The notes below the pieces were generated by a model. That model saw only the letters and a list, made by a program, of their open reading frames with translations, did not search any database and was not told the DNA's origin. Made by a program: the position numbers and the translations under genes. Of a DNA stretch of 64,000 nt, positions 2,834-60,273 are shown piece after piece (the first letter of the stretch is position 1; each line of letters opens with the position of its first letter). Origin of the DNA: a virus (Duplodnaviria; Caudoviricetes). The stretch is from positions 3,069-67,068 of IMG/VR virus record IMGVR_UViG_3300020577_008405. One strand, written 5' to 3'.

Positions 2834-3101
2834 GTGTCTTAAAAGAATGCAATCACTTACTCCAATGTTTGAGGAGTTGATTGCATTCTTATTGCAGGAA
2901 TTCTTGTTATCTAAAGAAGAATTAAAAGCAATTAAGGTTTCTCCAGAACAAGCAAGAATGCTTCAAGCAAAATTAGCAACCCTTTCTGATGAGAGGTTGT
3001 TGCAGCTTTTAGAGTATGAATGGACTCTTCTACCGACTGAGCGAATCCGAATTAATATTGTAACTGATCGCGGTTTTAAAGAGTTCATCGCTGAAACATA
3101 A
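2808..3101 (+). CDS. Hypothetical protein
   Basis: ORF in gene run. Confidence 0.55.
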   Translation: MRNTKREVECLKRMQSLTPMFEELIAFLLQEFLLSKEELKAIKVSPEQARMLQAKLATLSDERLLQLLEYEWTLLPTERIRINIVTDRGFKEFIAET

Positions 3102-4670: not shown

Positions 4671-4681
4671 TTAAGCAACGG

Positions 4682-4754
4682 GTTCTTGTAGCTCAGTGGT
4701 AGAGCAGGCTGCTAGAGATGCAGCCGGTTGTGGGTTCGAGTCCCTCCAAGAATC
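4682..4754 (+). tRNA. Atypical tRNA with 9-nt anticodon loop
   Basis: Acceptor GTTCTTG/CAAGAAT, D-arm GCTC-AGTGGTA-GAGC, GGCTG-CTAGAGATG-CAGCC, T-loop TTCGAGT. Confidence 0.75.
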
Positions 4755-4769
4755 TTTCAAAGAAGCGGT

Positions 4770-5821: not shown

Positions 5822-6208
5822 ATGAGCAAACGACTTGAGCGATTGAAAGAAACTGCATATAAGGAAGCGCTTAAAAGTACTGGTATTCAGCGTCATGGTG
5901 CTATTGTTCTTGGCAATGGAGGCCGTATTCTTGCCAAAGCATGCAATAACTATGACAATGGATGTCATGCAGAGGTACGTGCACTCAAGCGTGTTCCTCA
6001 TGATGCTAAGGAATGTGCCGTTGCTATTATTGTAGTACGTGCTCGCAGAAATCAACGCTTTGGTTTGAGTCGACCTTGTGTTGCTTGTCAAGCCGCACTC
6101 AAAGCAGCTAACATTGATGTTGTGTACTATTCAACTAATAATGAAACTTTAGAATATGAAACTTTCCACGAAAACGAGCACCGGCCAGTTTTTATTGAGG
6201 GTCATTAG
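5822..6208 (+). CDS. Zn-dependent cytidine/nucleotide deaminase-fold protein
   Basis: HAE (CHAEVRAL) and PCxxC (RPCVAC). Confidence 0.85.
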   Translation: MSKRLERLKETAYKEALKSTGIQRHGAIVLGNGGRILAKACNNYDNGCHAEVRALKRVPHDAKECAVAIIVVRARRNQRFGLSRPCVACQAALKAANIDVVYYSTNNETLEYETFHENEHRPVFIEGH

Positions 6209-6308
6209 AGAATTAGGCTTAATATCTTTTGTAACTGGATATCAAGCAAGCATTTTGTTAACAGTTCGCGGCTTTAAAGGAGTGACACGTGAAAACAACT
6301 TTTGGTGA
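6156..6308 (+). CDS. LxL-motif microprotein (50 aa)
   Basis: MKLSTKTSTGQF-LLRVIRELGLIS-FVTG...; overlaps both neighbours. Confidence 0.6.
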   Translation: MKLSTKTSTGQFLLRVIRELGLISFVTGYQASILLTVRGFKGVTRENNFW

Positions 6309-14555: not shown

Positions 14556-14585
14556 TAAAAGTGAATCACAGATTAGGCGCCACTC

Positions 14586-14664
14586 TCCTAATTAGTTTAA
14601 TGGCAAAACGTAGTTGTAACGTGGAGTTACAACTGAGTTGAAGGTTCGATTCCTTCGTTAGGTG
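14586..14664 (+). tRNA. tRNA-like RNA with 10-bp anticodon stem
   Basis: TCCTAAT/GTTAGGT, GTTT-AATGGCA-AAAC, TAGTTGTAAC-GTGGA-GTTACAACTG, GAAGG-TTCGATT-CCTTC. Confidence 0.7.
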
Positions 14665-14873
14665 ATTATGTCTATATATCCTGTTACAGCAGATGAAGAG
14701 GAAGTACGTAGCGTTTATCACATATTATCTAAGGTTTTACGTCTGTTACGCGATATGGTGAAAGTTATTTTGATGGTCTTTTTATTGTAGGTAAATGGAA
14801 GAAAGCTCAAAAACAATTAAAGATTTCGAATGGTGAAATAAACCACTAAGTAGTAGTTTTCATTGGAGAATAA

Positions 14874-25266: not shown

Positions 25267-26280
25267 ATGAACCAACCATTAGTCAAAATGATGTTTGGAA
25301 GTCATGTTTATGGAACTGCGCTTCCGACTTCTGATAGAGATTTCAAGGGGCTCTTTCTTCCCGATGCTGAATCGCTAGTGATGCAGCGAGCAGCCAAGCA
25401 TTTGAATAATTCTACAAAGAAGAATGATTCAGTACGAAATACAGCAGAAGACGTTGATGATGAAATGTTCTCATATCAGACTTACATGGAACTTATTCGT
25501 CAAGGTCAGACTGTCGCATTAGATATGTTGTTTACTCCGCAGCAGTTTTATTGTGCCGATGTTGTTGTAAGTCCATATTGGCGCGAAATCGTTGATAATG
25601 CAAGTAACCTTATTCACAAGGGAACTAATGCTTTTGTCGGATATACGAAAGCACAAGCGTCTAAATATGGCAACAAGGGCGATCGCCTTGCGGCTTTAAA
25701 TCTCTTCATGAATGTTATGAAGGATTGGGATGGACGCAAGGAGCTTGGCGAATATGCTACTGAAATTACTGCACTCTTAAAATCAATTAATCCTAAAGAA
25801 GCTGAAATAGTCTTAATTCCTTCTCCTAACGGCTTAAACGAAACTCGCGATGTACCCCACCTATCCTTAGCTAATAAGAAGGTAGGTTATACTTGCTCAG
25901 TGGAATATGCACGTCAGGTATGGCAGTTAGCTTTAGATAAGTATGGACATCGTGCAAGACTTGCCGAATCCAATGAAGGAATTGATTGGAAGGCTACTAT
26001 GCACGCAGTTCGTATTGCAGCAGAAGCAAAAGAACTTCTTCTTACTGGCCATATTACATTTCCACGGCCAGAAGCGCTTCTGCTTCTTGCAATTCGTCAA
26101 GGCCAATTACCATATAAGCAAGTCGAAGAACTAATTGATCAAGGATTAATGGATATTAAGGAGGCAGAGCTTAAATCCCATCTTGCCAATAAACCAAATT
26201 ACGAACTTATGGAAAGCCTTGTTTCTAAGGCTCATTGGTCAGTTATTCATGAGCAAACTCTACTCATGAACCGCTTCTAA
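25267..26280 (+). CDS. Pol-beta superfamily nucleotidyltransferase
   Basis: FGSHVYGT..TSDRDFKG; C-terminal KATMHAVR helix. Confidence 0.85.
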   Translation: MNQPLVKMMFGSHVYGTALPTSDRDFKGLFLPDAESLVMQRAAKHLNNSTKKNDSVRNTAEDVDDEMFSYQTYMELIRQGQTVALDMLFTPQQFYCADVVVSPYWREIVDNASNLIHKGTNAFVGYTKAQASKYGNKGDRLAALNLFMNVMKDWDGRKELGEYATEITALLKSINPKEAEIVLIPSPNGLNETRDVPHLSLANKKVGYTCSVEYARQVWQLALDKYGHRARLAESNEGIDWKATMHAVRIAAEAKELLLTGHITFPRPEALLLLAIRQGQLPYKQVEELIDQGLMDIKEAELKSHLANKPNYELMESLVSKAHWSVIHEQTLLMNRF

Positions 26281-26281
26281 A

Positions 26282-26476
26282 ATGTTTGAAATACAAACAA
26301 TCCATAATAGTGTTAAGAAATTTTGGATTGTGTTGTATCGTTTAGAACTAATTTCGTATGATGTAGCTATAATTCTAGTTGCTTTAACTTACGATCGCCA
26401 TAACTTCATTTTACGATGGCAAAACCAAAAAAAAATCAGAGAATGTATAACTAAAATATATGAAAATTCTTGTTGA
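26282..26476 (+). CDS. LxL-motif microprotein (64 aa)
   Basis: FWIVLYRLELIS. Confidence 0.7.
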   Translation: MFEIQTIHNSVKKFWIVLYRLELISYDVAIILVALTYDRHNFILRWQNQKKIRECITKIYENSC

Positions 26477-27038: not shown

Positions 27039-27767
27039 ATGAAATACGAAAACATTCATGAAGCATATACAGGAGTTTTGAAAGACGTCTATAATAATCC
27101 TGATTATCGAGCTGCACCTCGTGGCCTTCCTATTCGAGAGAAAGTGGATTATTCTTTTACGGTATTAAATCCAACATCTGAGCCAATTAAAACGGCAGAT
27201 GTCGAAAGGAATAATGTCATTGCAGACTATACAAGAAAAGAATTCAATCTTTATGACTCAGGGTCTAATAAGGCTGCTGAGTTTGCTCAAGCTAGTAAGT
27301 TTTGGGAAAAACTTGCAAATCCAGATGGAACTATCAATTCGGCTTACGGCTTTTTATTATGGAGAAATTACAGTTGCACCTCCAACTTTAGTAATCGCGC
27401 CATGACTCCTTGGGAGTGGGCTAGAGAGTCTTTACAGGCAGATAAAGATACTCGCCAAGCAATCTTAAGGTTCAATCTACCTGAGCATTGTTGGATTGGT
27501 AATAAAGACTTCACTTGTACGCTTACAGGTAACTTCTTAATTAGAAATGACAAGCTCTTTCTGACGATGGTAATGCGGTCTAACGATGTCGTATATGGAC
27601 TTACATATGACCTTCCTTGGTTTTGCAGCTTAATGGACAAGATGTTAGAAGAACTAAAGCCAACTTATCCGAATCTACAGAAGGGTACATATACGCATTT
27701 CGCCCATTCTTTACATATGTACGATAAAGATGAAAGTACGATTAAGAGCATGTTGGGGATAAGTTAA
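27039..27767 (+). CDS. ThyA-fold enzyme, dCMP hydroxymethyltransferase-like
   Basis: DFTCT...FLIRND...MRSNDVVYGLTYD...HSLHMY; Asp at the position of ThyA Asn177. Confidence 0.75.
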   Translation: MKYENIHEAYTGVLKDVYNNPDYRAAPRGLPIREKVDYSFTVLNPTSEPIKTADVERNNVIADYTRKEFNLYDSGSNKAAEFAQASKFWEKLANPDGTINSAYGFLLWRNYSCTSNFSNRAMTPWEWARESLQADKDTRQAILRFNLPEHCWIGNKDFTCTLTGNFLIRNDKLFLTMVMRSNDVVYGLTYDLPWFCSLMDKMLEELKPTYPNLQKGTYTHFAHSLHMYDKDESTIKSMLGIS

Positions 27768-28252
27768 TGGCAAAAGGTGAAGCTAGACAAAAAACCTGTT
27801 TGACTTGTAATTCTAGCTTCACCGCTCACAGAAGCGATGCTTGTTTTTGTAGTTTCCGATGTATGAGAAATAGTCCAAGCAATAAAGAATATTTACAGAA
27901 ATACAATAAATCATTTAACGGAAAATGGACACAAATTGTCAGTAAATGTAAGAAACTTGGTCAAGAGTTAGGATTAACTAGAGAAGAATGCATTGAATTA
28001 TGGCAGCAACCATGCCACTATTGCTCTAAGTCTTTAGATGGTGTACAAGGAATTAGTTTAGATAGAATTAATAATAATCTGAGTTATATTAAAGGCAATG
28101 TGCTTCCGTGTTGTGGAATTTGCAATAAAATTCGCAATACTTTTCTCACTGTAGAAGAGATGGAAGTAGCTATGAAGGCCGTTCTTGAATTTAGAAAGTC
28201 TAAGATGATTGGTACTGTTGCAGTACCTTTAGAAGGTAAACCTCTATGTTAA
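27767..28252 (+). CDS. His-Me finger (HNH-like) homing endonuclease
   Basis: CHYC...SLDRINNNLSYIKGNVLPCCGICN. Confidence 0.8.
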   Translation: MAKGEARQKTCLTCNSSFTAHRSDACFCSFRCMRNSPSNKEYLQKYNKSFNGKWTQIVSKCKKLGQELGLTREECIELWQQPCHYCSKSLDGVQGISLDRINNNLSYIKGNVLPCCGICNKIRNTFLTVEEMEVAMKAVLEFRKSKMIGTVAVPLEGKPLC

Positions 28253-28506: not shown

Positions 28507-29218
28507 ACAATTTGAGAAAGTTGAAGAATTAGATTCTGTAATTGAGGGAGTACAGAATCTAAAAGAGAAACTTGCGCACTATCAACTTAATAGTGTTTAT
28601 TTGTTTGAGCGAATTGATTACTTCAACCCTAAAAACACGTGGGTTGAAAAAACCCACACGGGATTCCCTATCAAATACAAAGTTGTTTATATATCAAAAA
28701 CTGGCGTACCTTATCTACGACGTATTTCTGTAGCTGGAAATCCAGTTGGTAATGCTTTTATTCCACCAGAAGCACTTGCGATTCAAGCTTTAACAAATGT
28801 AACTAAAAATGAAACCTTGTTAAGCGGGAATTCAATTGTTGCTCGTTTTATCCCTGACCCAGAGCAACTTGATGCAATTCTTCTTCAAGAAGAATTTGAT
28901 CCTATGGAGCAACATAGAAAAAAGTCTCAACTTTTTAATGAGATCAATAAACACAATAAATCAGTCTTAGTCCGTACTGGTTCTGATTACAACAGTATTG
29001 CTACGTTTTTTAAGAACTTGCAACCTGGTGATAAGTTTTGGACTTCTGTAGAAAAACAGTTTGTTATTCAATCAGTTGTTAAAGTTAATCGTGAGTATGT
29101 AATTACTTGTACTGATCACAATCAAGCAACTGTCGAATTTCGTTTCAAAGATTTTATGTATAAGCGGCTATATTCTGCTCAACCGCGATCTTTCCGCAAA
29201 GAGACTCGAAGTGAATAA
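28487..29218 (+). CDS. Hypothetical protein, paralog of 34114-34866
   Basis: YLRRISVAG, RFIPDPE, LQPGDKFW. Confidence 0.75.
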   Translation: METLTNEQFEKVEELDSVIEGVQNLKEKLAHYQLNSVYLFERIDYFNPKNTWVEKTHTGFPIKYKVVYISKTGVPYLRRISVAGNPVGNAFIPPEALAIQALTNVTKNETLLSGNSIVARFIPDPEQLDAILLQEEFDPMEQHRKKSQLFNEINKHNKSVLVRTGSDYNSIATFFKNLQPGDKFWTSVEKQFVIQSVVKVNREYVITCTDHNQATVEFRFKDFMYKRLYSAQPRSFRKETRSE

Positions 29219-29375
29219 CAAACTGAGACCTGAAAAAATACGTCGAAAAATAGGTTATCTTCGACATATGAATGCACGAAATCCTACATCTGGAGCAAAT
29301 AGAAATACTTGGACTGTGTTTTGGATGATCTTATATAAGTTAAAATTAACTACTAAACTGCATTACCACTTCTAA
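29211..29375 (+). CDS. LxL-motif microprotein (54 aa)
   Basis: GTG start overlapping upstream stop; FWMILYKLKLTT. Confidence 0.65.
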   Translation: MNNKLRPEKIRRKIGYLRHMNARNPTSGANRNTWTVFWMILYKLKLTTKLHYHF

Positions 29376-29841: not shown

Positions 29842-29988
29842 ATGACCACAACGAGCCAATTACTACGATGGTTACATATGGCTCATTTTCTTTCATTTAT
29901 TCGGACTATAAAGTTAATTAGAAATCACACTGGTACTGAAGCATTAATTCTGGAGTATAGACGTATATGTCCGCCTCTAGAACCATAA
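29842..29988 (+). CDS. LxL-motif microprotein (48 aa)
   Basis: FLSFIRTIKLIR. Confidence 0.6.
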   Translation: MTTTSQLLRWLHMAHFLSFIRTIKLIRNHTGTEALILEYRRICPPLEP

Positions 29989-30152
29989 CTTCAAAAATTC
30001 TTTTAGATAGTCATCTTAAAACATTTAATTGGTTTTTTTGGATTTTGAGGGAAACAGGTCTTATAAAGAAAATGACCTTCTATGAGATAACTCATAATAC
30101 AGCTAAAGAATTTTATGGTGCGCGCATCACTTCAACACTTAAAAGCTTTTGA
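29967..30152 (+). CDS. LxL-motif microprotein (61 aa)
   Basis: FFWILRETGLIK. Confidence 0.65.
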   Translation: MSASRTITSKILLDSHLKTFNWFFWILRETGLIKKMTFYEITHNTAKEFYGARITSTLKSF

Positions 30153-30240
30153 TTATCTTCTTTGGTGTATATTTAGATTAAAATTAATAAGCAAGAAGAG
30201 TATGGATGACACATATTCGCGTTCGCGCTTTTTAAGATAA
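30115..30240 (+). CDS. LxL-motif microprotein (41 aa)
   Basis: LLWCIFRLKLIS. Confidence 0.65.
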   Translation: MVRASLQHLKAFDYLLWCIFRLKLISKKSMDDTYSRSRFLR

Positions 30241-30244
30241 AGTT

Positions 30245-30377
30245 ATGACTAGCTCACTCAAATCAGAACAATGGTTGTATTTTGTGCGTTTTTTTCCGAT
30301 CACTTATCTATTTAAAACTAATTGATCCCGTAACGAGTAGTATTTCATTAAAGAAAGCACATAATCGTACTCTTTAA
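30245..30377 (+). pseudogene. LxL-motif microprotein frameshifted at a T7 run
   Basis: Removing one T from 30289-30295 gives MTSSLKSEQWLYFVR-FFRSLIYLKLID-PVTSS... Confidence 0.55.
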
Positions 30378-30383
30378 AATAAA

Positions 30384-30542
30384 ATGACTCGGGAACAATT
30401 AGTTTTGGCAGATTATTTTTTGTCACTTGGTGTGCTTTTAGGACTCTTTTCTCGTAAAGCTTCAAACACAGCCTGGTGGAGAGTGCGTGATCGAATGGCA
30501 CGCAATGAGCCTGGATTAGGTAAACTCCATGAAAGACTTTAA
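30384..30542 (+). CDS. LxL-motif microprotein (52 aa)
   Basis: FLSLGVLLGLFS. Confidence 0.55.
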   Translation: MTREQLVLADYFLSLGVLLGLFSRKASNTAWWRVRDRMARNEPGLGKLHERL

Positions 30543-30699
30543 AAAACTATCTCGTCGTGATCAGCATTCTTGGATTGATGTTATGGATAGTTATCTTATG
30601 TTCTGCTGTAAACTTAATCTTATTTCAAGCGAATGTAATGCAGCTTGTTGGGATTTTGTGGTTGATAAGTATTTAACAAAGGCAAGAAAATATGACTGA
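30529..30699 (+). CDS. LxL-motif microprotein (56 aa)
   Basis: YLMFCCKLNLIS; overlaps orn start. Confidence 0.6.
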   Translation: MKDFKKLSRRDQHSWIDVMDSYLMFCCKLNLISSECNAACWDFVVDKYLTKARKYD

Positions 30700-31221: not shown

Positions 31222-31728
31222 ATGACAACAGTCCTTACATCTTTTCTTATATCTTTAGTTCCTTTAGACATGAAAGTGTCTACTTGGCCACTCGAAGGTA
31301 TGAATGGAGAACTTAATAATATTGCTTACATGGAGTCATATTATGGGACTTATGTCAACCATGAACCACATGTTCGTGGAGCGTTTCATACTGCTTTTGG
31401 TTCGCTAGGACTAAAACCAGTTACTGCTCATGATCAGTATTTGAAGTCCCCAAGACTTCAAAAGCAATTTCCGGGTCTTCAAGATGAAAAAGTTTTCTTG
31501 CAAGAGTTTTGGCGCAATCGTTTACTTTATGTGCAATGTGCCAACTTTCATTGGTATTATTTACGATCAGTGACACCTACATTAGCGAGAGCTGTTTATT
31601 CTTGGCGATGGGGTTTGACTGCTTCTAATAATGCAACAGATGAGCAGATTGCAACTGATTCATATACGGCTAAATATGCCATACTCACGCAACGATATAT
31701 CGATGCAAGAACCATCTCCAAGCGTTAA
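31222..31728 (+). CDS. Hypothetical protein, possibly lysozyme-fold
   Basis: AAGGA RBS; IAYMES resembles the SLT catalytic Glu motif (weak). Confidence 0.5.
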   Translation: MTTVLTSFLISLVPLDMKVSTWPLEGMNGELNNIAYMESYYGTYVNHEPHVRGAFHTAFGSLGLKPVTAHDQYLKSPRLQKQFPGLQDEKVFLQEFWRNRLLYVQCANFHWYYLRSVTPTLARAVYSWRWGLTASNNATDEQIATDSYTAKYAILTQRYIDARTISKR

Positions 31729-31861
31729 TGGTATATATCCACCATACTTAGCTTATGCATATTTAATTAACTTTTATTGGACTCTTCATACATTAAAGTT
31801 AATGTCAGATTCTGTTTTTACTTTAGCTAAGCAAAAAGTGTTTGAAAAATATTTATGGTAA
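31703..31861 (+). CDS. LxL-motif microprotein (about 52 aa)
   Basis: FYWTLHTLKLMS. Confidence 0.6.
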   Translation: MQEPSPSVNGIYPPYLAYAYLINFYWTLHTLKLMSDSVFTLAKQKVFEKYLW

Positions 31862-32877
31862 CTCTACTTACAAGAGACGAATTTCGCAATGGTGTATTTG
31901 CTCGTGATGGGCATAAATGCGTTATTTGTAAACTACCTGCTCAAGACGCTCATCATATTTTAGAGCGACGACTTTGGCCTGATGGTGGATACTACTTAGA
32001 TAATGGAGCAAGTCTTTGTGGTGAACATCATATACAAGCCGAACAGACTACTCTAAGTTGTCCTGAAATTCGTGAGAAAGCGGGTATTGCTAAGATAGTA
32101 TTACCACCTCACTTATATCGTGATCAAGAGTATGACAAGTGGGGAAACCCTATTCTCCCTAATGGAACTAGGTTAAGAGGTGATCTTTTTTCTGATGAGA
32201 GCGTGCAAAAGATTCTGCAACCTGTTTTATCACTTTTCACGCATCACGTCAAATATCCAAGAACCTATCACGTCCCCTGGTCACCAGGAATGACAAAAGA
32301 TGATAGGGCCATGCCTACGGATGGGCCCTTTATTGGACAAGAAGTAGTGGCAACTCTTAAGATGGACGGAGAGAACACAACTATGTATCGAGATTATGTT
32401 CATGCTCGATCATTAGTTTATGAGCCCCATCCATCAAGAAATTGGGCAAAAACTATTCATAGTCGGATTAGCCATGAAATCCCCGAAGGTTGGAGGATTT
32501 GTGGAGAGAATCTAGCAGCAGTTCACAGCATTGAATACAAGGATCTTCCTAGTTATTTCATGATTTTTAGCATTTGGAATGACAAGAATATTTGTCTTTC
32601 TTGGAAAGAAACAGTTGAATGGGCTCAACTTTTAGACCTTCCAACTGTGCATGATTTTTGGCAAGGTACATATAACAATGAAGGATATGGAATCCGTGAA
32701 GCGTTTAGTAACAATTACGCTTCTACTCATGAAGGATATGTGATTCGACTAGCTGGATCCTTTCCTTATTCTGAGTTCCGTAAAAGTGTAGGCAAGTATG
32801 TGCGTAAAAACCATGTACAAACTCATGGGCATTGGATGCGGCAAGTAATGCGGCTAAATGGTTTAGCTAATGCCTAA
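31855..32877 (+). CDS. HNH-domain / ATP-dependent RNA ligase fusion
   Basis: CVIC..DAHH..NGASLCGEHH; KYPRTYH, KMDGEN, CGENL, EGYVIR, KYVR. Confidence 0.85.
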   Translation: MVTLLTRDEFRNGVFARDGHKCVICKLPAQDAHHILERRLWPDGGYYLDNGASLCGEHHIQAEQTTLSCPEIREKAGIAKIVLPPHLYRDQEYDKWGNPILPNGTRLRGDLFSDESVQKILQPVLSLFTHHVKYPRTYHVPWSPGMTKDDRAMPTDGPFIGQEVVATLKMDGENTTMYRDYVHARSLVYEPHPSRNWAKTIHSRISHEIPEGWRICGENLAAVHSIEYKDLPSYFMIFSIWNDKNICLSWKETVEWAQLLDLPTVHDFWQGTYNNEGYGIREAFSNNYASTHEGYVIRLAGSFPYSEFRKSVGKYVRKNHVQTHGHWMRQVMRLNGLANA

Positions 32878-34117: not shown

Positions 34118-34866
34118 AATACGAAATTACGCAAACTGATCGCGACATAATGGAACGCGATATGCATACTGATCGAACGCTTAAACACCTTCGAAATCTT
34201 TCATTTTATAAATTTACTATTGGCGATGTTTTGATTCGCGAAGAGAAGTATCGAAAACATGGTTCGCATGATGAATACGAATGGAAGCCAATGACTGCTT
34301 CTTGTGGATTAAATAACAAATATGTTTATATATTTGAAAATGAACTTGGAATTGGTTATATTCGTCGTTTAAGTGTAAATGGACGCAAATTTGTTGATCA
34401 TCCGATGTGTGTTACCACTTTTGATCCTGACCAAACCAGGTTTTCTTTAGATCCAGAATACGCTGATCATATGCTTTTATCAGGCGAGGATGATGAATTC
34501 GATACCCAAACTCGTTATGAAACACTTAAGAAGAAGAAGGAACGTGTTAAGCGCATGAATGCAAAGCTTGCTCTTAAACTTGATACTAGCAATGAATTAA
34601 GTGTTGTGACTTGGATGAAAAGTCTTAAGCCAGGTGATACACTTTGGTGGGGCAATGGTCTTAGTAATATTCGTAAAGAACCCCTTGTTGTTCAATCTGT
34701 AACAACGAATACTAATTCATGGGGTTATAACCAAAATACCCACACTCTAAAATGTGTAGATGTTAATAATCCAACTGGATATCCTCACACATTCCAGTCA
34801 AATTATATGGGACCATATTGCTTCTTTACAACACGACCACATTTCGCTGATGAGGTACTTGACTAA
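34114..34866 (+). CDS. Hypothetical protein, paralog of 28487-29218
   Basis: YIRRLSVNG, RFSLDPE, LKPGDTLW. Confidence 0.75.
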   Translation: MKYEITQTDRDIMERDMHTDRTLKHLRNLSFYKFTIGDVLIREEKYRKHGSHDEYEWKPMTASCGLNNKYVYIFENELGIGYIRRLSVNGRKFVDHPMCVTTFDPDQTRFSLDPEYADHMLLSGEDDEFDTQTRYETLKKKKERVKRMNAKLALKLDTSNELSVVTWMKSLKPGDTLWWGNGLSNIRKEPLVVQSVTTNTNSWGYNQNTHTLKCVDVNNPTGYPHTFQSNYMGPYCFFTTRPHFADEVLD

Positions 34867-35903
34867 TGAAAAGTAGGCATCAAGAAATCAAAATAAATAA
34901 TACCTATTCTAATTGGACGGTTACTAGTTTACCATTTTTAGATGGAAAGTTTTATAAAGTTTCTTGCCAATGCACTTGCGGTAAAACTAAAAAAGTTAAA
35001 ACACATAATTTATTGAGTGGCAAAAGCAAAAGTTGCGGTTGCATTCAACAAAAGGCCTTAGTCAAGAATTTAACTGGAAAACCATCTAAACATCGTGTTT
35101 CTGCGGCAGTAAAGGCGATTAACCAAATTCACAATTCTTATAAATTTGGAGCCAAAAAAAGATCTCTTTCTTTTTCTTTAACTAAGTCGGAATTCACAAC
35201 ACTATTACAACAAGAATGCTCATATTGTGGTAAATTAAATAGTAATCTTAAAAATAATATTAATGGATCTTTTACTTACAACGGCATAGACAGAGTTGAC
35301 TCAAATATTGGATACGAACTCTATAATGTTGTTGCATGTTGCTCAACATGCAACATGATGAAAAACGACTTACCATTAAATGAATTTTATGAACATCTTC
35401 GCGCTATAAAAACTTATACAACTAAAGATCTATTTAAGATTACTGAACGCAAATTAAATTATCTTCACGCTAAGGCTACGGCTGTTGCAGCCGCATCACA
35501 TGACATCCACACTAAAGTTGGAGCGATCGTGTTAGATGCTAAAACGGGAGCGGTCTTAGCAGAAGGTTACAACGGTTTTGTGCGGCATGCTCCTGATATT
35601 ATCTTGCCTACGAGTAGACCTGAAAAGTATGATTATATGGTCCACGCAGAAATGAATGCACTTTGCCACGCTGGGAGACAAGGCACCAAAGTGGATGATA
35701 GTATTCTGTATACAACTTTGTCTCCATGCAAGCTTTGTTTGCGCTTGATGTGGCAAGCAGGAATTAAGGATATTTATTTCAAAGAAAAATATAAAGACTT
35801 TGAGGAATGTACGTCTATGTTGGACTTAAAAGTATCTTTAAATCAAATTGGTGACTTTTATCATATGATAGTGAGTACTCGTGACCAAGCAAAAAACATT
35901 TGA
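34866..35903 (+). CDS. Homing endonuclease-like / dCMP deaminase fusion
   Basis: CQCTCG...SCGC; GIDRVDSNIGY..NVVACCSTCN; TKVGA...GYNG...HAEMNAL...SPCKLC. Confidence 0.85.
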   Translation: MKSRHQEIKINNTYSNWTVTSLPFLDGKFYKVSCQCTCGKTKKVKTHNLLSGKSKSCGCIQQKALVKNLTGKPSKHRVSAAVKAINQIHNSYKFGAKKRSLSFSLTKSEFTTLLQQECSYCGKLNSNLKNNINGSFTYNGIDRVDSNIGYELYNVVACCSTCNMMKNDLPLNEFYEHLRAIKTYTTKDLFKITERKLNYLHAKATAVAAASHDIHTKVGAIVLDAKTGAVLAEGYNGFVRHAPDIILPTSRPEKYDYMVHAEMNALCHAGRQGTKVDDSILYTTLSPCKLCLRLMWQAGIKDIYFKEKYKDFEECTSMLDLKVSLNQIGDFYHMIVSTRDQAKNI

Positions 35904-55639: not shown

Positions 55640-56026
55640 CTATATAGAAGAATCGTCCGGAAGAAAACCGGAAATATCGATATCTTCCGATATAGATTGT
55701 ACATCTGGGGATGATTGGATGGTTACTGGAAGCGTATATGTGCCCATCGTATACGTGGCACCAGACATGAGACTACAGCAAATAACGCAATATGTATTGC
55801 CAAGGTAATCCGGAAGAGATCCTTGGCACACATGTGGTTTAGGTATCGGCGTTGTAATCGGCATACCTACATATTGACCAGATGTAAATCCAAAAGGGTT
55901 GTCCCTCATGGATTTAATCGTGTCTCTGCTCGCTTCCGAGTTAGACCAATCTTGATCGGACCTGACTTTGCCTGTATAAAGTAAATTTTGCTGCTCTTGT
56001 TGGATCCCCAGATTTGCTTTTGCCAC
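55640..56026 (-). CDS. Hypothetical protein (start uncertain)
   Basis: Overlaps 55906-56157 in another frame. Confidence 0.45.
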   Translation of the reverse strand: MAKANLGIQQEQQNLLYTGKVRSDQDWSNSEASRDTIKSMRDNPFGFTSGQYVGMPITTPIPKPHVCQGSLPDYLGNTYCVICCSLMSGATYTMGTYTLPVTIQSSPDVQSISEDIDISGFLPDDSSI

Positions 56027-56157
56027 GCTTCCGTTTGCCGGAATTTCGTCTGGTTCACCTTGCCCTGCTCGCGGCGCTTCTTCACATACTCTGGATCTTT
56101 CATCCGTTTCTGGTGGTACTCACGGGCGGCGGCATTCTTCTCTTCCTTGCTGCTCAT
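55906..56157 (-). CDS. Basic protein ending in truncated GIY-YIG/T5orf172-like motif
   Basis: IYFIQAKSGPIKIGLT...RL; TATAAT upstream. Confidence 0.5.
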   Translation of the reverse strand: MSSKEEKNAAAREYHQKRMKDPEYVKKRREQGKVNQTKFRQTEAWQKQIWGSNKSSKIYFIQAKSGPIKIGLTRKRAETRLNP

Positions 56158-56241
56158 CTGTTTGCGTGCCTTGGTTAACGCCGCTGGTGCTCTAATCCTG
56201 CTGAGTTAGTATTCATAAGAAGATTATACCTCAATAATTTA

Positions 56242-56313
56242 TCACAACCTATAAAACAACTTCAATTTATATAGTATATACCTAAACCTCATCATCCTGT
56301 GATGGTCAGTCAT
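56242..56313 (-). CDS. LxL-motif micropeptide (23 aa)
   Basis: MTDHHRMMR-FRYILYKLKLFY-RL. Confidence 0.65.
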   Translation of the reverse strand: MTDHHRMMRFRYILYKLKLFYRL

Positions 56314-56318
56314 GTAAT

Positions 56319-56432
56319 TTATTTATAAGGGTTAAACAGTTTCAACTTGTAAAGTAAAAATTTTAATTTTAACATTTTCTCTTGGGGAGAAAGATATTTT
56401 ACATAAGGGTCTAAGGTGTATGGATAAGACAT
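56319..56432 (-). CDS. LxL-motif microprotein (37 aa)
   Basis: LKFLLYKLKLFN. Confidence 0.7.
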   Translation of the reverse strand: MSYPYTLDPYVKYLSPQEKMLKLKFLLYKLKLFNPYK

Positions 56433-56437
56433 ATAGT

Positions 56438-56539
56438 TTAGCTAAGTTTACCACATAATTTTAATTTATAAAGAATATACCTAAATTTCATTTTCCAATG
56501 GCGAATCGCCATATTCTTTAATACTTCACTCCAATCCAT
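56438..56539 (-). CDS. LxL-motif microprotein (33 aa)
   Basis: FRYILYKLKLCG. Confidence 0.7.
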   Translation of the reverse strand: MDWSEVLKNMAIRHWKMKFRYILYKLKLCGKLS

Positions 56540-56544
56540 TTTTG

Positions 56545-56626
56545 TGGGTGTGGTAGGGATCGAACCTACTTGACCGAAGTCGACGGATTTACAGTCCGTT
56601 GCCTAGTCCATTAAGGCGGCACACCC
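56545..56626 (-). tRNA. tRNA-Tyr(GTA)
   Basis: GGGTGTG/CACACCC, ACGGA-CTGTAAA-TCCGT, long variable arm, GTAGG-TTCGATC-CCTAC, A73. Confidence 0.92.
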
Positions 56627-56633
56627 GTTAATA

Positions 56634-56774
56634 TTACTTAGAATTGAGATACAGTTGCTGTAATTCGTTATTACTTATAAAACGATAATTCTTATTAAGA
56701 TCTAACACATATAGCATCCACATAAAATTCTGAATAACTCCACGATCAACCCATTTCCATTTCATGGTTTTCAT
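56634..56774 (-). CDS. LxL-motif microprotein (46 aa)
   Basis: FMWMLYVLDLNK; sits between two tRNA genes. Confidence 0.7.
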   Translation of the reverse strand: MKTMKWKWVDRGVIQNFMWMLYVLDLNKNYRFISNNELQQLYLNSK

Positions 56775-56776
56775 AA

Positions 56777-56849
56777 CGATCTCTAAGAGAATTGAACTCT
56801 TATTTACTAGTTGAGCAAACTAGTCGCTCTACCGTTGAGCTAAAGAAGC
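56777..56849 (-). tRNA. Atypical tRNA-like gene with 9-nt anticodon loop
   Basis: GCTC-AACGGTA-GAGC, ACTAG-TTTGCTCAA-CTAGT, AAGAG-TTCAATT-CTCTT; weak acceptor. Confidence 0.6.
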
Positions 56850-56902
56850 AAGTGATAGTCGTTCGTACTCAGGCAGTGAAATACGAATATGAGGCCTACT
56901 AA

Positions 56903-57337
56903 TTATCTCGCGACCTTGTCACTTAACAAAATTCCATCTAAGTGCTCTATTTCGTGCTGCAACATCTGTGCTCTTAAGCCGCCAGTATTCATAGTGTGAC
57001 TAACTTTATCAACGTCTTGATATGAAACTGTAATCTTCGAAAAGCGCTGTACGTCTTCAAAGATGCCCGGGAAAGAAAGACATCCTTCTTTCATAAACTT
57101 CTTTGTACCACCAATGCGTTCGATTTTAGGATTGATATAGATCTCCTTGCCGTTACCTACATCAGCCACGATGACACGTAGAGGCGTTCCAATCTGGATT
57201 GCTGAAAGACCGACACCTTCATACTGATACATCACTGCAAACATGTTGTGAATAAGGATTTGCAAGTCGGTGGAAAAATCCACTTCAGACGACACTTGCC
57301 GCAATTTTTCGTCCGGAAAAACTACCAACATAATCAC
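56903..57337 (-). CDS. def: Peptide deformylase
   Basis: GVGLSAIQIG, EGCLS, QHEIEHLDG. Confidence 0.95.
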   Translation of the reverse strand: MIMLVVFPDEKLRQVSSEVDFSTDLQILIHNMFAVMYQYEGVGLSAIQIGTPLRVIVADVGNGKEIYINPKIERIGGTKKFMKEGCLSFPGIFEDVQRFSKITVSYQDVDKVSHTMNTGGLRAQMLQHEIEHLDGILLSDKVAR

Positions 57338-59019: not shown

Positions 59020-60273
59020 TCACTCTCGAGTGGGAGTATTGATAGCCTCGATGAGAAGATTATACTTTAGGTAATCTAGAACCTCTAAAGAAGTTCCGGA
59101 AAATATCGCAACACTTTGTGCGCGCCTATTAATCGCTATAATGCGACTATCACTCAATGCGGTTCCTGTTCCCCTTTGCTTCAAACGTTCAAGCACAGTT
59201 TCCTTTGTTTCAATAACAAAAATTGGCTTGATATCGAACTTGTCAGTATTTCGTTTAATGAAAGTAGAAATGCCAATCGACAAATCATAAATTAACGGTT
59301 TATTGAGTTTACTAAGTTTTAGCAGTTCATCTACATGGCTCTTTTTATCTGCAGAATCTGATGACAAATAAGACACATTGTTTAGCTGATTACATATCCA
59401 TGACTTACCAGAACCCGATACTCCGCATATTAGATACAATATTGGTTTAGTAACTAAAACCTCATCTTTATATTTCCATGTTAAACCGCCAGCGCTTTTA
59501 TATCGGCCTTGAATATTCTTAATGATAGAGGATCCTGGGCAACCAACAGTGCTAGCTGCTTCCTTAATAGAAGGAAATTCCCTACCATCACTAGCAATAA
59601 CCTCCTTTTGTTGAGTTTTATAAAACTCGGCCATTTTAGCCTGAGTCTCAGGAGAATTGAGCGAGGTTTTTACCGCCAATGAAATTTGCTTCTTAAGCTC
59701 ATCTGTAGTATTTGCTTTAGCTCTTTCTGATGCTGCTTGTCGATGCTCAGGATCCGCCCAGTATTCTTTCCGTTTTTCACTAATATTAGTTCTAAAGTCT
59801 TCGTCTTCCCACATTGCTTTCGATTGCTCAGAGCGAGCAATGGCAAGCTGAGGATCAGTTTTAAATCGCTGCTTATGTGAAGAAGACATTTTGGCTCTAA
59901 CTTCTTCAGGCACAATGGCTCCGAGTTTTGCTTGTCGCATTTTTTCTATTGTCTCCGGAGCAAAGAAATGTCCATTTCCTCCTTCTTTTAAATTGTAACC
60001 ATTGGGAGATAAAGTATTTCGACTTTCAATAAAGAACCTTTCAAGTTTATCTAATTCATCCTGAGAAGAAGCTTTAGCTAATTCTTCAATAGAAAAATTC
60101 TCTTCTCCATATTTCTTAATAGCATCTCTAATTGCCTTACAACCAGAACTTGGAAAAGTATGTTCTATAAATCGTTGTTCTAAATCTCTTATTGTTTGAC
60201 CAATATAAACTTTATTATTGAGCTTATTAGTTATCTTATAAATAATCATAGAGCAATTATACCCCACAATCAT
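59020..60273 (-). CDS. GIY-YIG/NUMOD3 homing endonuclease fused to P-loop kinase-like domain
   Basis: IIYKITN..NKVYIGQT, NGYNL; CGVSGSGKS. Confidence 0.85.
   Translation of the reverse strand: MIVGYNCSMIIYKITNKLNNKVYIGQTIRDLEQRFIEHTFPSSGCKAIRDAIKKYGEENFSIEELAKASSQDELDKLERFFIESRNTLSPNGYNLKEGGNGHFFAPETIEKMRQAKLGAIVPEEVRAKMSSSHKQRFKTDPQLAIARSEQSKAMWEDEDFRTNISEKRKEYWADPEHRQAASERAKANTTDELKKQISLAVKTSLNSPETQAKMAEFYKTQQKEVIASDGREFPSIKEAASTVGCPGSSIIKNIQGRYKSAGGLTWKYKDEVLVTKPILYLICGVSGSGKSWICNQLNNVSYLSSDSADKKSHVDELLKLSKLNKPLIYDLSIGISTFIKRNTDKFDIKPIFVIETKETVLERLKQRGTGTALSDSRIIAINRRAQSVAIFSGTSLEVLDYLKYNLLIEAINTPTRE

Follow-up and report, generated by a model that had tools for sequence, protein, structure and literature searches.

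We examined a compact locus on the minus strand (positions 56242-56850) of a viral contig of 67,068 bp, the IMG/VR record IMGVR_UViG_3300020577_008405 (Duplodnaviria; Caudoviricetes). The window analyzed here is the whole stretch of 64,000 nt from position 3,069 to 67,068 of that record, and positions are counted from its first letter. At this locus, very short open reading frames (ORFs) are interleaved with tRNA-type genes. The original prediction had described an atypical tRNA, a 46-amino-acid (aa) ORF, a tRNA-Tyr, and then ORFs of 33, 37 and 23 aa, and the same order was recovered with ARAGORN, Rfam and the ORF list. The cluster and its upstream neighbor are laid out as follows:

56903-57337: peptide deformylase (PDF) gene, upstream neighbor of the cluster
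56776-56850 (-): tRNA-like gene with anticodon GCU (Ser-GCU by ARAGORN; Rfam tRNA model, 45.4 bits)
56634-56774 (-): 46-aa ORF, W-rich, full-length member with two predicted helices (family hidden Markov model (HMM), 43.2 bits)
56544-56626 (-): tRNA-Tyr(GUA), canonical, with a variable arm and no encoded CCA (ARAGORN, Rfam)
56438-56539 (-): 33-aa short member, core FRYILYKLKLCG, predicted helix 1 only (HMM, 30.4 bits)
56319-56432 (-): 37-aa short member, core LKFLLYKLKLFN, 5 nt after the preceding stop (HMM, 20.6 bits)
56242-56313 (-): 23-aa short member, MTDHHRMMRFRYILYKLKLFYRL, 5 nt after the preceding stop

The genes are tightly packed. The ATG of the 46-aa ORF lies 2 nt past the end of the tRNA-like gene, that of the 33-aa ORF lies 5 nt past tRNA-Tyr, and the spacers between the 33-, 37- and 23-aa ORFs are ACTAT and ATTAC. 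The three short ORFs had been said to share the hexapeptide LYKLKL with a plus-strand ORF at 29211-29375, and six-frame translation of the contig indeed contained exactly these four occurrences; a looser motif expression gave five matches against a mean of 0.03 in 30 shuffles. The synonymous differences reported between the paralogs are real as well, the peptides matching while the DNA is only ~70% alike. Since the sole DNA repeat in the cluster is a 64-nt stretch of 70% identity between the 23-aa and the 33-aa genes, the near-identity lies in the peptides and not in the DNA.

To these we added comparisons with five relatives. Four (L001-L004) are viral contigs found via the neighboring 548-aa gene, and one of the four genomes, G003, is complete (172,623 bp, with direct terminal repeats). 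The fifth, L007, is a closer relative, an ENA contig of 159.9 kb found by protein search. Its layout matches the window, with the tRNA-like gene, a 43-aa ORF, tRNA-Tyr, ORFs of 33, 37 and 23 aa and identical 5-nt spacers; in L001-L004 the order is the tRNA-like gene, an ortholog of the 46-aa ORF (W-type ORF) and a MTDRHRMMRFRY-type ORF. Orthologs of the 46-aa ORF are present in L001, L002, L003, L004 and L007, those of the 23-aa ORF in L007, L001, L002 and L003, and open frames are kept in six contigs. Nei-Gojobori counts between the window and L007 gave the following proportions of synonymous (pS) and non-synonymous (pN) differences:

33-aa ORF: pS 0.205, pN 0.059
37-aa ORF: pS 0.307, pN 0.061
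23-aa ORF: pS 0.455, pN 0.017 (five synonymous changes and one non-synonymous change)
46-aa ORF: pS 0.364, pN 0.084

Pooled over the four ORFs, there were 22.5 synonymous and 20.5 non-synonymous differences (pS 0.327, pN 0.060, pN/pS 0.18), a synonymous excess with a binomial p of 2.6e-7. The other two frames of the same DNA gave pN/pS values of 0.90 and 1.49, and the neighboring genes used as a yardstick gave 0.15 (PDF) and 0.18 (Tmk). Further away, the first 20 residues of the 23-mer orthologs in L001 and L002 differ at two and three positions, respectively (one and two when compared with L007), with pS of at least 0.9, and the Arg codons AGG, CGG and CGA interchange across relatives in this ORF. 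The synonymous differences, which the original prediction had expected to disappear among relatives if its proposal were wrong, thus persist to saturation while the peptide is nearly invariant. These sequence comparisons show that the four micro-ORFs are under purifying selection at the protein level, and we consider it highly likely that they are real, translated genes.

The four ORFs belong to a larger family with the core F-x3-L-[YW]-x-L-x-L-I-S-x2-T. When the cluster ORFs of all relatives were aligned, the W-rich 46-aa ORF was found to share this core with the LYKLKL peptides (e.g., ..IQNFFWLLWKLGLNK..). An HMM of the motif, run against all stop-to-stop frames of this contig, found 11 members above the best score of five shuffled genomes. 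A full-length HMM (A3) run on six-frame ORFs found 15 members in this contig (G000) and 32 in G003 above the best shuffled score, and an independent profile search of the genomes returned 12 and 26, respectively, at E <= 0.01. With the A3 HMM, the four cluster ORFs scored 20.6-43.2 bits, compared with a maximum of 11.9 bits in five shuffled genomes. In this contig all members lie outside longer ORFs (a few in G003 do not), and the cluster ORFs are stand-alone small ORFs of the class of about 25-100 aa, packed between their neighbors. The largest concentration is in G003, where an array at ~59.5-61.9 kb holds at least 12 head-to-tail members of 44-99 aa with the consensus ..F..xLYxLxLISxxTRxxhxxxW... 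The plus-strand members in the window are:

6156-6308 (+): 50-aa member, core LLRVIRELGLIS, 35.2 bits; homolog P0017
17285-17404 (+): 39-aa member, core FLSMLYVLELIS, 38.5 bits; starts 1 nt past the stop of a 464-aa gene
26282-26476 (+): 64-aa member, core FWIVLYRLELIS, 52.3 bits; homolog P0007
29211-29375 (+): short member, core FWMILYKLKLTT, 24.4 bits; 54 aa from GTG or 35 aa from the ATG at 29268
30115-30240 (+): 41-aa member, core LLWCIFRLKLIS, 32.0 bits; within a run of small ORFs at 29842-30699
31631-31861 (+): member with core FYWTLHTLKLMS, start uncertain (52-76 aa), 39.8 bits; homolog P0016
32972-33139 (+): 55-aa member, core FLWMLRILHLIS, 46.9 bits; homolog P0015
33120-33296 (+): 58-aa member of weaker score, core FLTILSRLGLCS; motif HMM, 22.2 bits; A3 HMM, 13.2 bits
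36047-36211 (+): 54-aa member, core FFTMLSKLKLIN, 39.7 bits

The G003 counterpart of the 29211 member reads ..AFWHTLIKLRLTS.., and the 30115 member has weaker neighbors at 29872 and 30033 (13.7 and 14.6 bits). These plus-strand members abut or overlap the start and stop codons of neighboring genes, which encode an RlaP-like nucleotidyltransferase, a ThyA-like protein, HNH endonucleases, an RNA ligase and a dCMP deaminase. The 26282 member starts 1 nt past the stop of the RlaP-like gene, and the 3' end of the 31631 member overlaps the start of the RNA ligase gene. Because most family members, including the G003 array, are not adjacent to tRNA genes, the interleaving with tRNAs that first drew attention to the locus is not a defining property of the family.

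Searches for relatives elsewhere returned very little. Pfam and PHROGs gave isolated chance-level matches for the 28 aligned members. A homolog search with alignment A2 returned three matches, all from this phage group, and a profile search of 1.84 billion representative proteins returned 14, of which 13 were from this group. The sole match outside the six group contigs, P0006 (462 aa), consists of seven near-identical repeats (..SSNHKVRDSFQNFFWILYNKHLINLNTQKSQAIR..) resembling the W-type core IQNFFWLLWKLGLNK, and probably represents tandem-repeat DNA of an unrelated organism that was translated. A locus search of IMG/VR (A5) found only the same four contigs, and in a DNA search of the phage collection the tRNA-Tyr portion alone was matched, in unrelated phages. 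A pattern match in L006 (FRYIFYKFKF) was set aside as chance, lying off-frame inside a 115-aa ORF of an unrelated contig. The locus is found in sequencing runs of river, wastewater and activated-sludge origin, and capsid proteins of SPO1-like Bacillus phages share 32% identity with the one encoded here. The cluster is a small part of a lineage-specific, amplified family with ~30 copies per genome in a rare group of ~170-kb phages.

To consider the shape of these proteins, we turn to an AlphaFold2 (AF2) model of a 45-aa member of the G003 array, computed with a 28-row alignment. It is a helix-loop-helix (mean predicted local distance difference test (pLDDT) score of 82.8) with helices at residues 10-25 and 31-43 and the loop G-L-I-S-N. 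The conserved positions fall on a face of helix 1 that is hydrophobic and aromatic, on the I-S turn, on a Thr at the start of helix 2 (N-cap) and on a distal aromatic residue; the rest is variable. Full-length members of ~45 aa, the 46-aa ORF included, are thus predicted to be helical hairpins. The helix 1 core, F-x3-L-[YWF]-x-L-x-L, is present in all four cluster ORFs. The I-S-x-x-T turn and the second helix with its conserved aromatic residue occur in a variant form (L-N-K...Y) in the 46-aa ORF and are missing from the 33-, 37- and 23-aa ORFs. These three peptides and the 29211 member end 2-5 residues after L-x-L, so that they hold helix 1 only.

We read the short forms as C-terminal truncations because the L001 ortholog of the 23-mer is 44 aa long, looks full length and continues into a helix-2-like tail (..LKLFTTVRGDLVVFW..). 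This changes one proposal of the original prediction, in which the motif was taken as the minimal functional unit on the grounds that the 23-mer is almost nothing else. The strong selection on the truncated 23-mer agrees with that proposal, but the peptide is better described as a shortened two-helix protein. That all of these ORFs form one family with truncated short forms is, in our judgment, quite probable. The proteins are basic and aromatic, with an isoelectric point (pI) of 9-11 in 24 of the 28 aligned members and an aromatic content of 10-23%, and the short forms carry a net charge of +5 to +6 over 23-37 residues. A complex prediction for the 46-aa protein with the 33-aa peptide scored 0.02, uninformative either way.

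The tRNA-like gene at the head of the cluster has a 6-bp anticodon stem, the loop U-U/C-G-C-U-C-A and a variable region of 4-5 nt, and so departs from a canonical bacterial tRNA-Ser, in which the variable arm is long, the anticodon stem has 5 bp and position 37 is a purine. Across five relatives, 12 of its 24 pairs show compensatory changes, pairs of the anticodon stem among them, and its identity between the window and L007 is 76%, compared with 96% for tRNA-Tyr. This pattern of substitution points to an element conserved as structure and not as sequence. The 5' strand of its acceptor stem is pyrimidine-rich, and the 3' strand is consequently like a Shine-Dalgarno (SD) sequence, reading AGAGA, AAGGGG, AGGGG, AGGAG and AGGAG in the five relatives, 4-6 nt upstream of the start codon of the W-type ORF, which in all five begins 1-5 nt past the end of the tRNA-like gene. 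Neither tRNA gene of the cluster encodes CCA.

Two other tRNA-like genes in the window also have lengthened anticodon stems, at 4681-4755 (+) with 6 bp and at 14585-14665 (+) with 10 bp (z = -4.1 vs shuffles), beside that of the cluster at 56776-56850 (-) with 6-7 bp. The three may be non-decoding tRNA mimics. In G003, ARAGORN also reported a candidate resembling a transfer-messenger RNA (L018 2944-3092, -) with the tag ASQKGQCWVTA, among ~11 dispersed minus-strand tRNA genes at 11-47 kb.

The original prediction had further proposed that co-transcription with tRNAs would release the small mRNAs by tRNA processing. On the coding strand within 56242-56850, no terminator-like sites were found. 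Promoter-like sites within the cluster were limited to a weak match (9 of 12) just upstream of the tRNA-like gene and an equally weak one within the 37-aa ORF (56345-56316), and sigma-70 promoter scans gave fewer sites than shuffles and no support for a promoter per unit. Contigs from RNA libraries gave patchy, low-depth cover; in a metatranscriptomic library, a single contig of 174 nt (56454-56627) takes in tRNA-Tyr together with the 5' part of the 33-aa ORF, although DNA carry-over is possible and contigs cannot show ends. Co-transcription of the cluster with punctuation by tRNAs is plausible and somewhat more likely than not, and the release of mini-mRNAs by tRNA processing is plausible.

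The relatives also give an idea of how the cluster may have grown. In L001 and L002 the cluster is limited to the tRNA-like gene and the W-type and 23-mer-type ORFs; the W-type ORF is duplicated in L003 and L004; and the lineage of the window and L007 has in addition the 33- and 37-aa paralogs and tRNA-Tyr, which is absent from this site in L001-L004. Such differences in gene content suggest growth of the region through local duplications and insertions. Immediately past the end of the 23-aa gene, more than 110 nt are 100% identical between the window (56150-56244, -) and L007 (6520-6620), compared with 82-92% for the flanking genes. The identical stretch holds a conserved GGTATAAT (-10-like) box, present also in L002 and L003, and its identity suggests a recent exchange or recombination.

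A GIY-YIG homing endonuclease gene (59020-60273) lies 2.5 kb from the cluster, and HNH/endonuclease VII-like domains are found at 34866-35903 (+) and 27767-28252 (+), one of them fused to dCMP deaminase, so that the contig is rich in genes of the homing-endonuclease type. At 55906-56157 and 55640-56026 (-), a gene appears to have been rearranged: its C-terminal part corresponds to the end of a protein of 109-142 aa that is conserved in the relatives (L001 8915-9343), and its N-terminal part differs. Three to four genes that the relatives have between the microprotein cluster and this gene are missing from the window. A likeness of 55906-56157 to GIY-YIG/T5orf172 was seen by eye; it is unconfirmed, with no match in Pfam or PHROGs for this ORF or its L007 counterpart.

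On balance we lean towards an explanation in which the cluster encodes members of a translated, amplified family, is punctuated by tRNAs and presents an interaction surface. The 33-, 37- and 23-aa peptides would have lost helix 2 through early stop codons; they may have arisen by local tandem duplication and been kept since helix 1 alone is still useful. The cluster would be read as one polycistronic transcript punctuated by the tRNA-like RNA and tRNA-Tyr, and RNase P together with 3' processing of the CCA-less tRNAs would yield mRNAs with leaders of 2-5 nt, almost leaderless. Alternatively, on unprocessed RNA the 46-aa ORF could use the SD-like tract (AGGAG/AGGGG/AGAGA) sequestered in the acceptor stem of the tRNA-like element. 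Ribosomes would reach the 37- and 23-aa ORFs by termination and reinitiation over the 5-nt spacers, a mode consistent with the distance of these ORFs from the preceding stop. As for function, the conserved hydrophobic face may be a protein-protein interaction surface, for self-association or for one shared target, with variable flanks that diversify it, and the microproteins might then be early host-interaction effectors acting in take-over or counter-defense. Both proposals are speculative, and a function as interaction modules is for now a tentative suggestion.

Several points weigh against this explanation. Most members lack a recognizable SD, compared with about two thirds of the long genes that have one, and the 33-aa ORF lacks an SD as well as any upstream ORF to which it could be coupled. 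The hairpin model is built on a shallow alignment of 28 rows. The short cores have a modest helical hydrophobic moment (0.04-0.42) that does not establish them as classical amphipathic helices. The comparisons between the window and L007 rest on 6-17 differences per ORF, and translation and transcript ends are predictions from sequence. Finally, any host target of the family is conjectural.

The main rival is that the family consists of small RNA- or tRNA-binding proteins that chaperone, mask or protect the tRNAs and tRNA-like RNAs of the phage, or act together with its RNA-repair genes against host defenses that cleave tRNAs. The basic pI and the aromatic content given above would suit such a role, one sub-cluster is joined to a tRNA-like gene in every relative, members adjoin the RlaP-like nucleotidyltransferase and RNA ligase genes, and the contig has its three tRNA-like genes with lengthened anticodon stems. 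However, most members, including the G003 array at 59.5-61.9 kb, lie away from tRNA genes, the conserved positions are hydrophobic rather than basic, and the Pfam, Foldseek and VIA-align searches gave no match to any RNA-binding family. We regard RNA binding as unlikely, if worth keeping in mind. The RlaP-like nucleotidyltransferase gene (25267-26280, +; Pfam 6.1e-7) and the RNA ligase gene (31855-32877, +; Pfam 8.9e-28, PHROG 3e-128) each directly adjoin a family microprotein gene, and a pathway for repair of tRNA or RNA may be encoded by the phage.

The helix-loop-helix of the AF2 model could also suggest minimal DNA-binding regulators of the helix-turn-helix (HTH) type, with L-G-L-I-S-x-x-T-R as turn and recognition helix, and the core is superficially like hydrophobic-x-x-L-G-hydrophobic-S-x-x-T-hydrophobic-x-R, one member reading ..IISYQTRMRNIN... 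This reading is doubtful. None of the 28 members matched HTH Pfam models even at E <= 0.5, the loop is one residue longer than the classical turn with a bulky Leu where a small residue is expected, and the third helix is absent. Besides, ~30 paralogous regulators in one phage are implausible, and the short forms are conserved though they lack the putative recognition helix.

In another reading, the microprotein genes would make up one regulatory and functional unit with the tRNA-like element, a unit that senses and counters host defenses targeting tRNAs. The SD of the 46-aa ORF would be sequestered by the acceptor stem of a tRNA mimic that does not decode, and a host activity that processes or cleaves tRNAs would decide whether the microproteins downstream are made, from a leaderless or SD-exposed mRNA; the partners in such a unit would be the ~30 paralogs, the three long-stemmed tRNA mimics and the RNA-repair genes. 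We consider this joint arrangement improbable as it stands.

The original prediction had also pointed to membrane and toxicity assays, and the short peptides could be membrane-active or toxic cationic peptides used for host killing, lysis timing or superinfection exclusion, their charge of +5 to +6 accompanying a hydrophobic, aromatic core. The longest uncharged hydrophobic run is, however, ~6-11 residues, broken by K/R, where ~18-20 are needed to span a membrane; the hydrophobic moment is low in two of the three short forms (0.18 and 0.04), and the full-length relatives look like soluble hairpins. Such a role is accordingly hard to credit. The reading already disfavored, and very improbable, is that the ORFs are non-functional as proteins and that the motif is a DNA- or RNA-level element or a set of decaying duplicates: the ORFs are very short, mostly lack an SD and are taken as translated on sequence grounds, but the synonymous excess is frame-specific, the peptides match where paralog DNA is ~70% alike, Arg codons swap between the AGG and CGN families, and the frames stay open in six contigs.

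A few narrower candidates were dropped along the way. A promoter-like DNA motif (TATAAAT inside the motif) was rejected as the relatives alter the DNA but not the peptide, a leucine-rich pattern like a nuclear export signal was judged coincidental, and a classical amphipathic antimicrobial helix was abandoned in view of the low hydrophobic moment. Bacterial beta-clamp-binding motifs follow the consensus QL[SD]LF or QLxLxL, a pentapeptide or hexapeptide led by Gln and placed at a terminus; the family has [KR]-L-x-L-[FIC] with no conserved Gln, and the likeness is superficial.

The preferred reading, of a translated and amplified microprotein family, has some wider consequences. Genes of fewer than ~50 codons are routinely missed by gene callers, and here comparative genomics alone showed a 23-codon gene and its neighbors to be under protein-level selection. 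One phage lineage devotes ~3% of its genome to ~30 copies of one predicted two-helix scaffold without a known relative. The locus therefore offers a tractable case in which to study the role of amplified phage microproteins, whether half a hairpin works alone, and whether a bacterial virus expresses mini-cistrons by way of tRNA processing. Should its target be a conserved host factor, the family would represent a new class of small inhibitors.

At the level of structure, a Foldseek search of the PDB returned nothing at E <= 0.001, the ESM Atlas gave no usable match, and a wide VIA-align search reached a best Z of 5.1 among generic helical hairpins (ribosomal proteins, designed proteins, Twort Gp168), none of which stands out. 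The structure of Gp168 with the clamp (7evp_D) was among these matches with a Z of 4.6 and a root-mean-square deviation of 2.4 over 36 residues. Gp168, a small helical phage inhibitor that binds the sliding clamp, scores no better here than many unrelated hairpins, and the match does not speak for a relationship.

Four known systems invite comparison by arrangement. In the E. coli tyrT operon, tRNA-Tyr genes are followed on the same transcript by tpr, which encodes a small protamine-like protein (PMC3141248). In both cases tRNA-Tyr is immediately followed by a micro-ORF whose peptide is very basic; the present locus differs in having several ORFs, drawn from a family of ~30 members and placed 1-5 nt from the tRNA ends. 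Tpr is not known to share sequence similarity with the family. Among the large lytic phages, SegB of T4 drives the co-inheritance of neighboring tRNA genes, and the tRNA region of T2L carries ORFs of unknown function (PMC2330249). SegB is a GIY-YIG homing endonuclease and offers a precedent for the spread of tRNA regions by such enzymes. The tRNA regions of T4 and T5 resemble the cluster in having tRNA genes interleaved with small ORFs and in being plastic among close relatives, and here a GIY-YIG gene is nearby. In contrast to those regions, the ORFs here are a paralogous family that occurs also far from tRNAs, and a part played by the GIY-YIG gene in their spread would be conjecture.

In animal mitochondria, tRNAs punctuate polycistronic transcripts and their excision gives leaderless mRNAs. 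The likeness is that coding sequences start within a few nt of a tRNA 3' end; the differences are that this is a bacterial virus, that an SD-like tract lies inside the acceptor stem of the tRNA-like element, and that processing is here a proposal. SPO1-like phages (Herelleviridae) carry arrays of small early genes as host-takeover modules, and their capsid proteins are those with 32% identity to that of the present contig. Their takeover genes, however, are not a single paralogous family, and no homology to the family described here was detected. None of these four systems is homologous to the family. Even among ORFan phage microproteins, it is unusual in its copy number, its half-domain members and the welded junctions of its genes with tRNAs.

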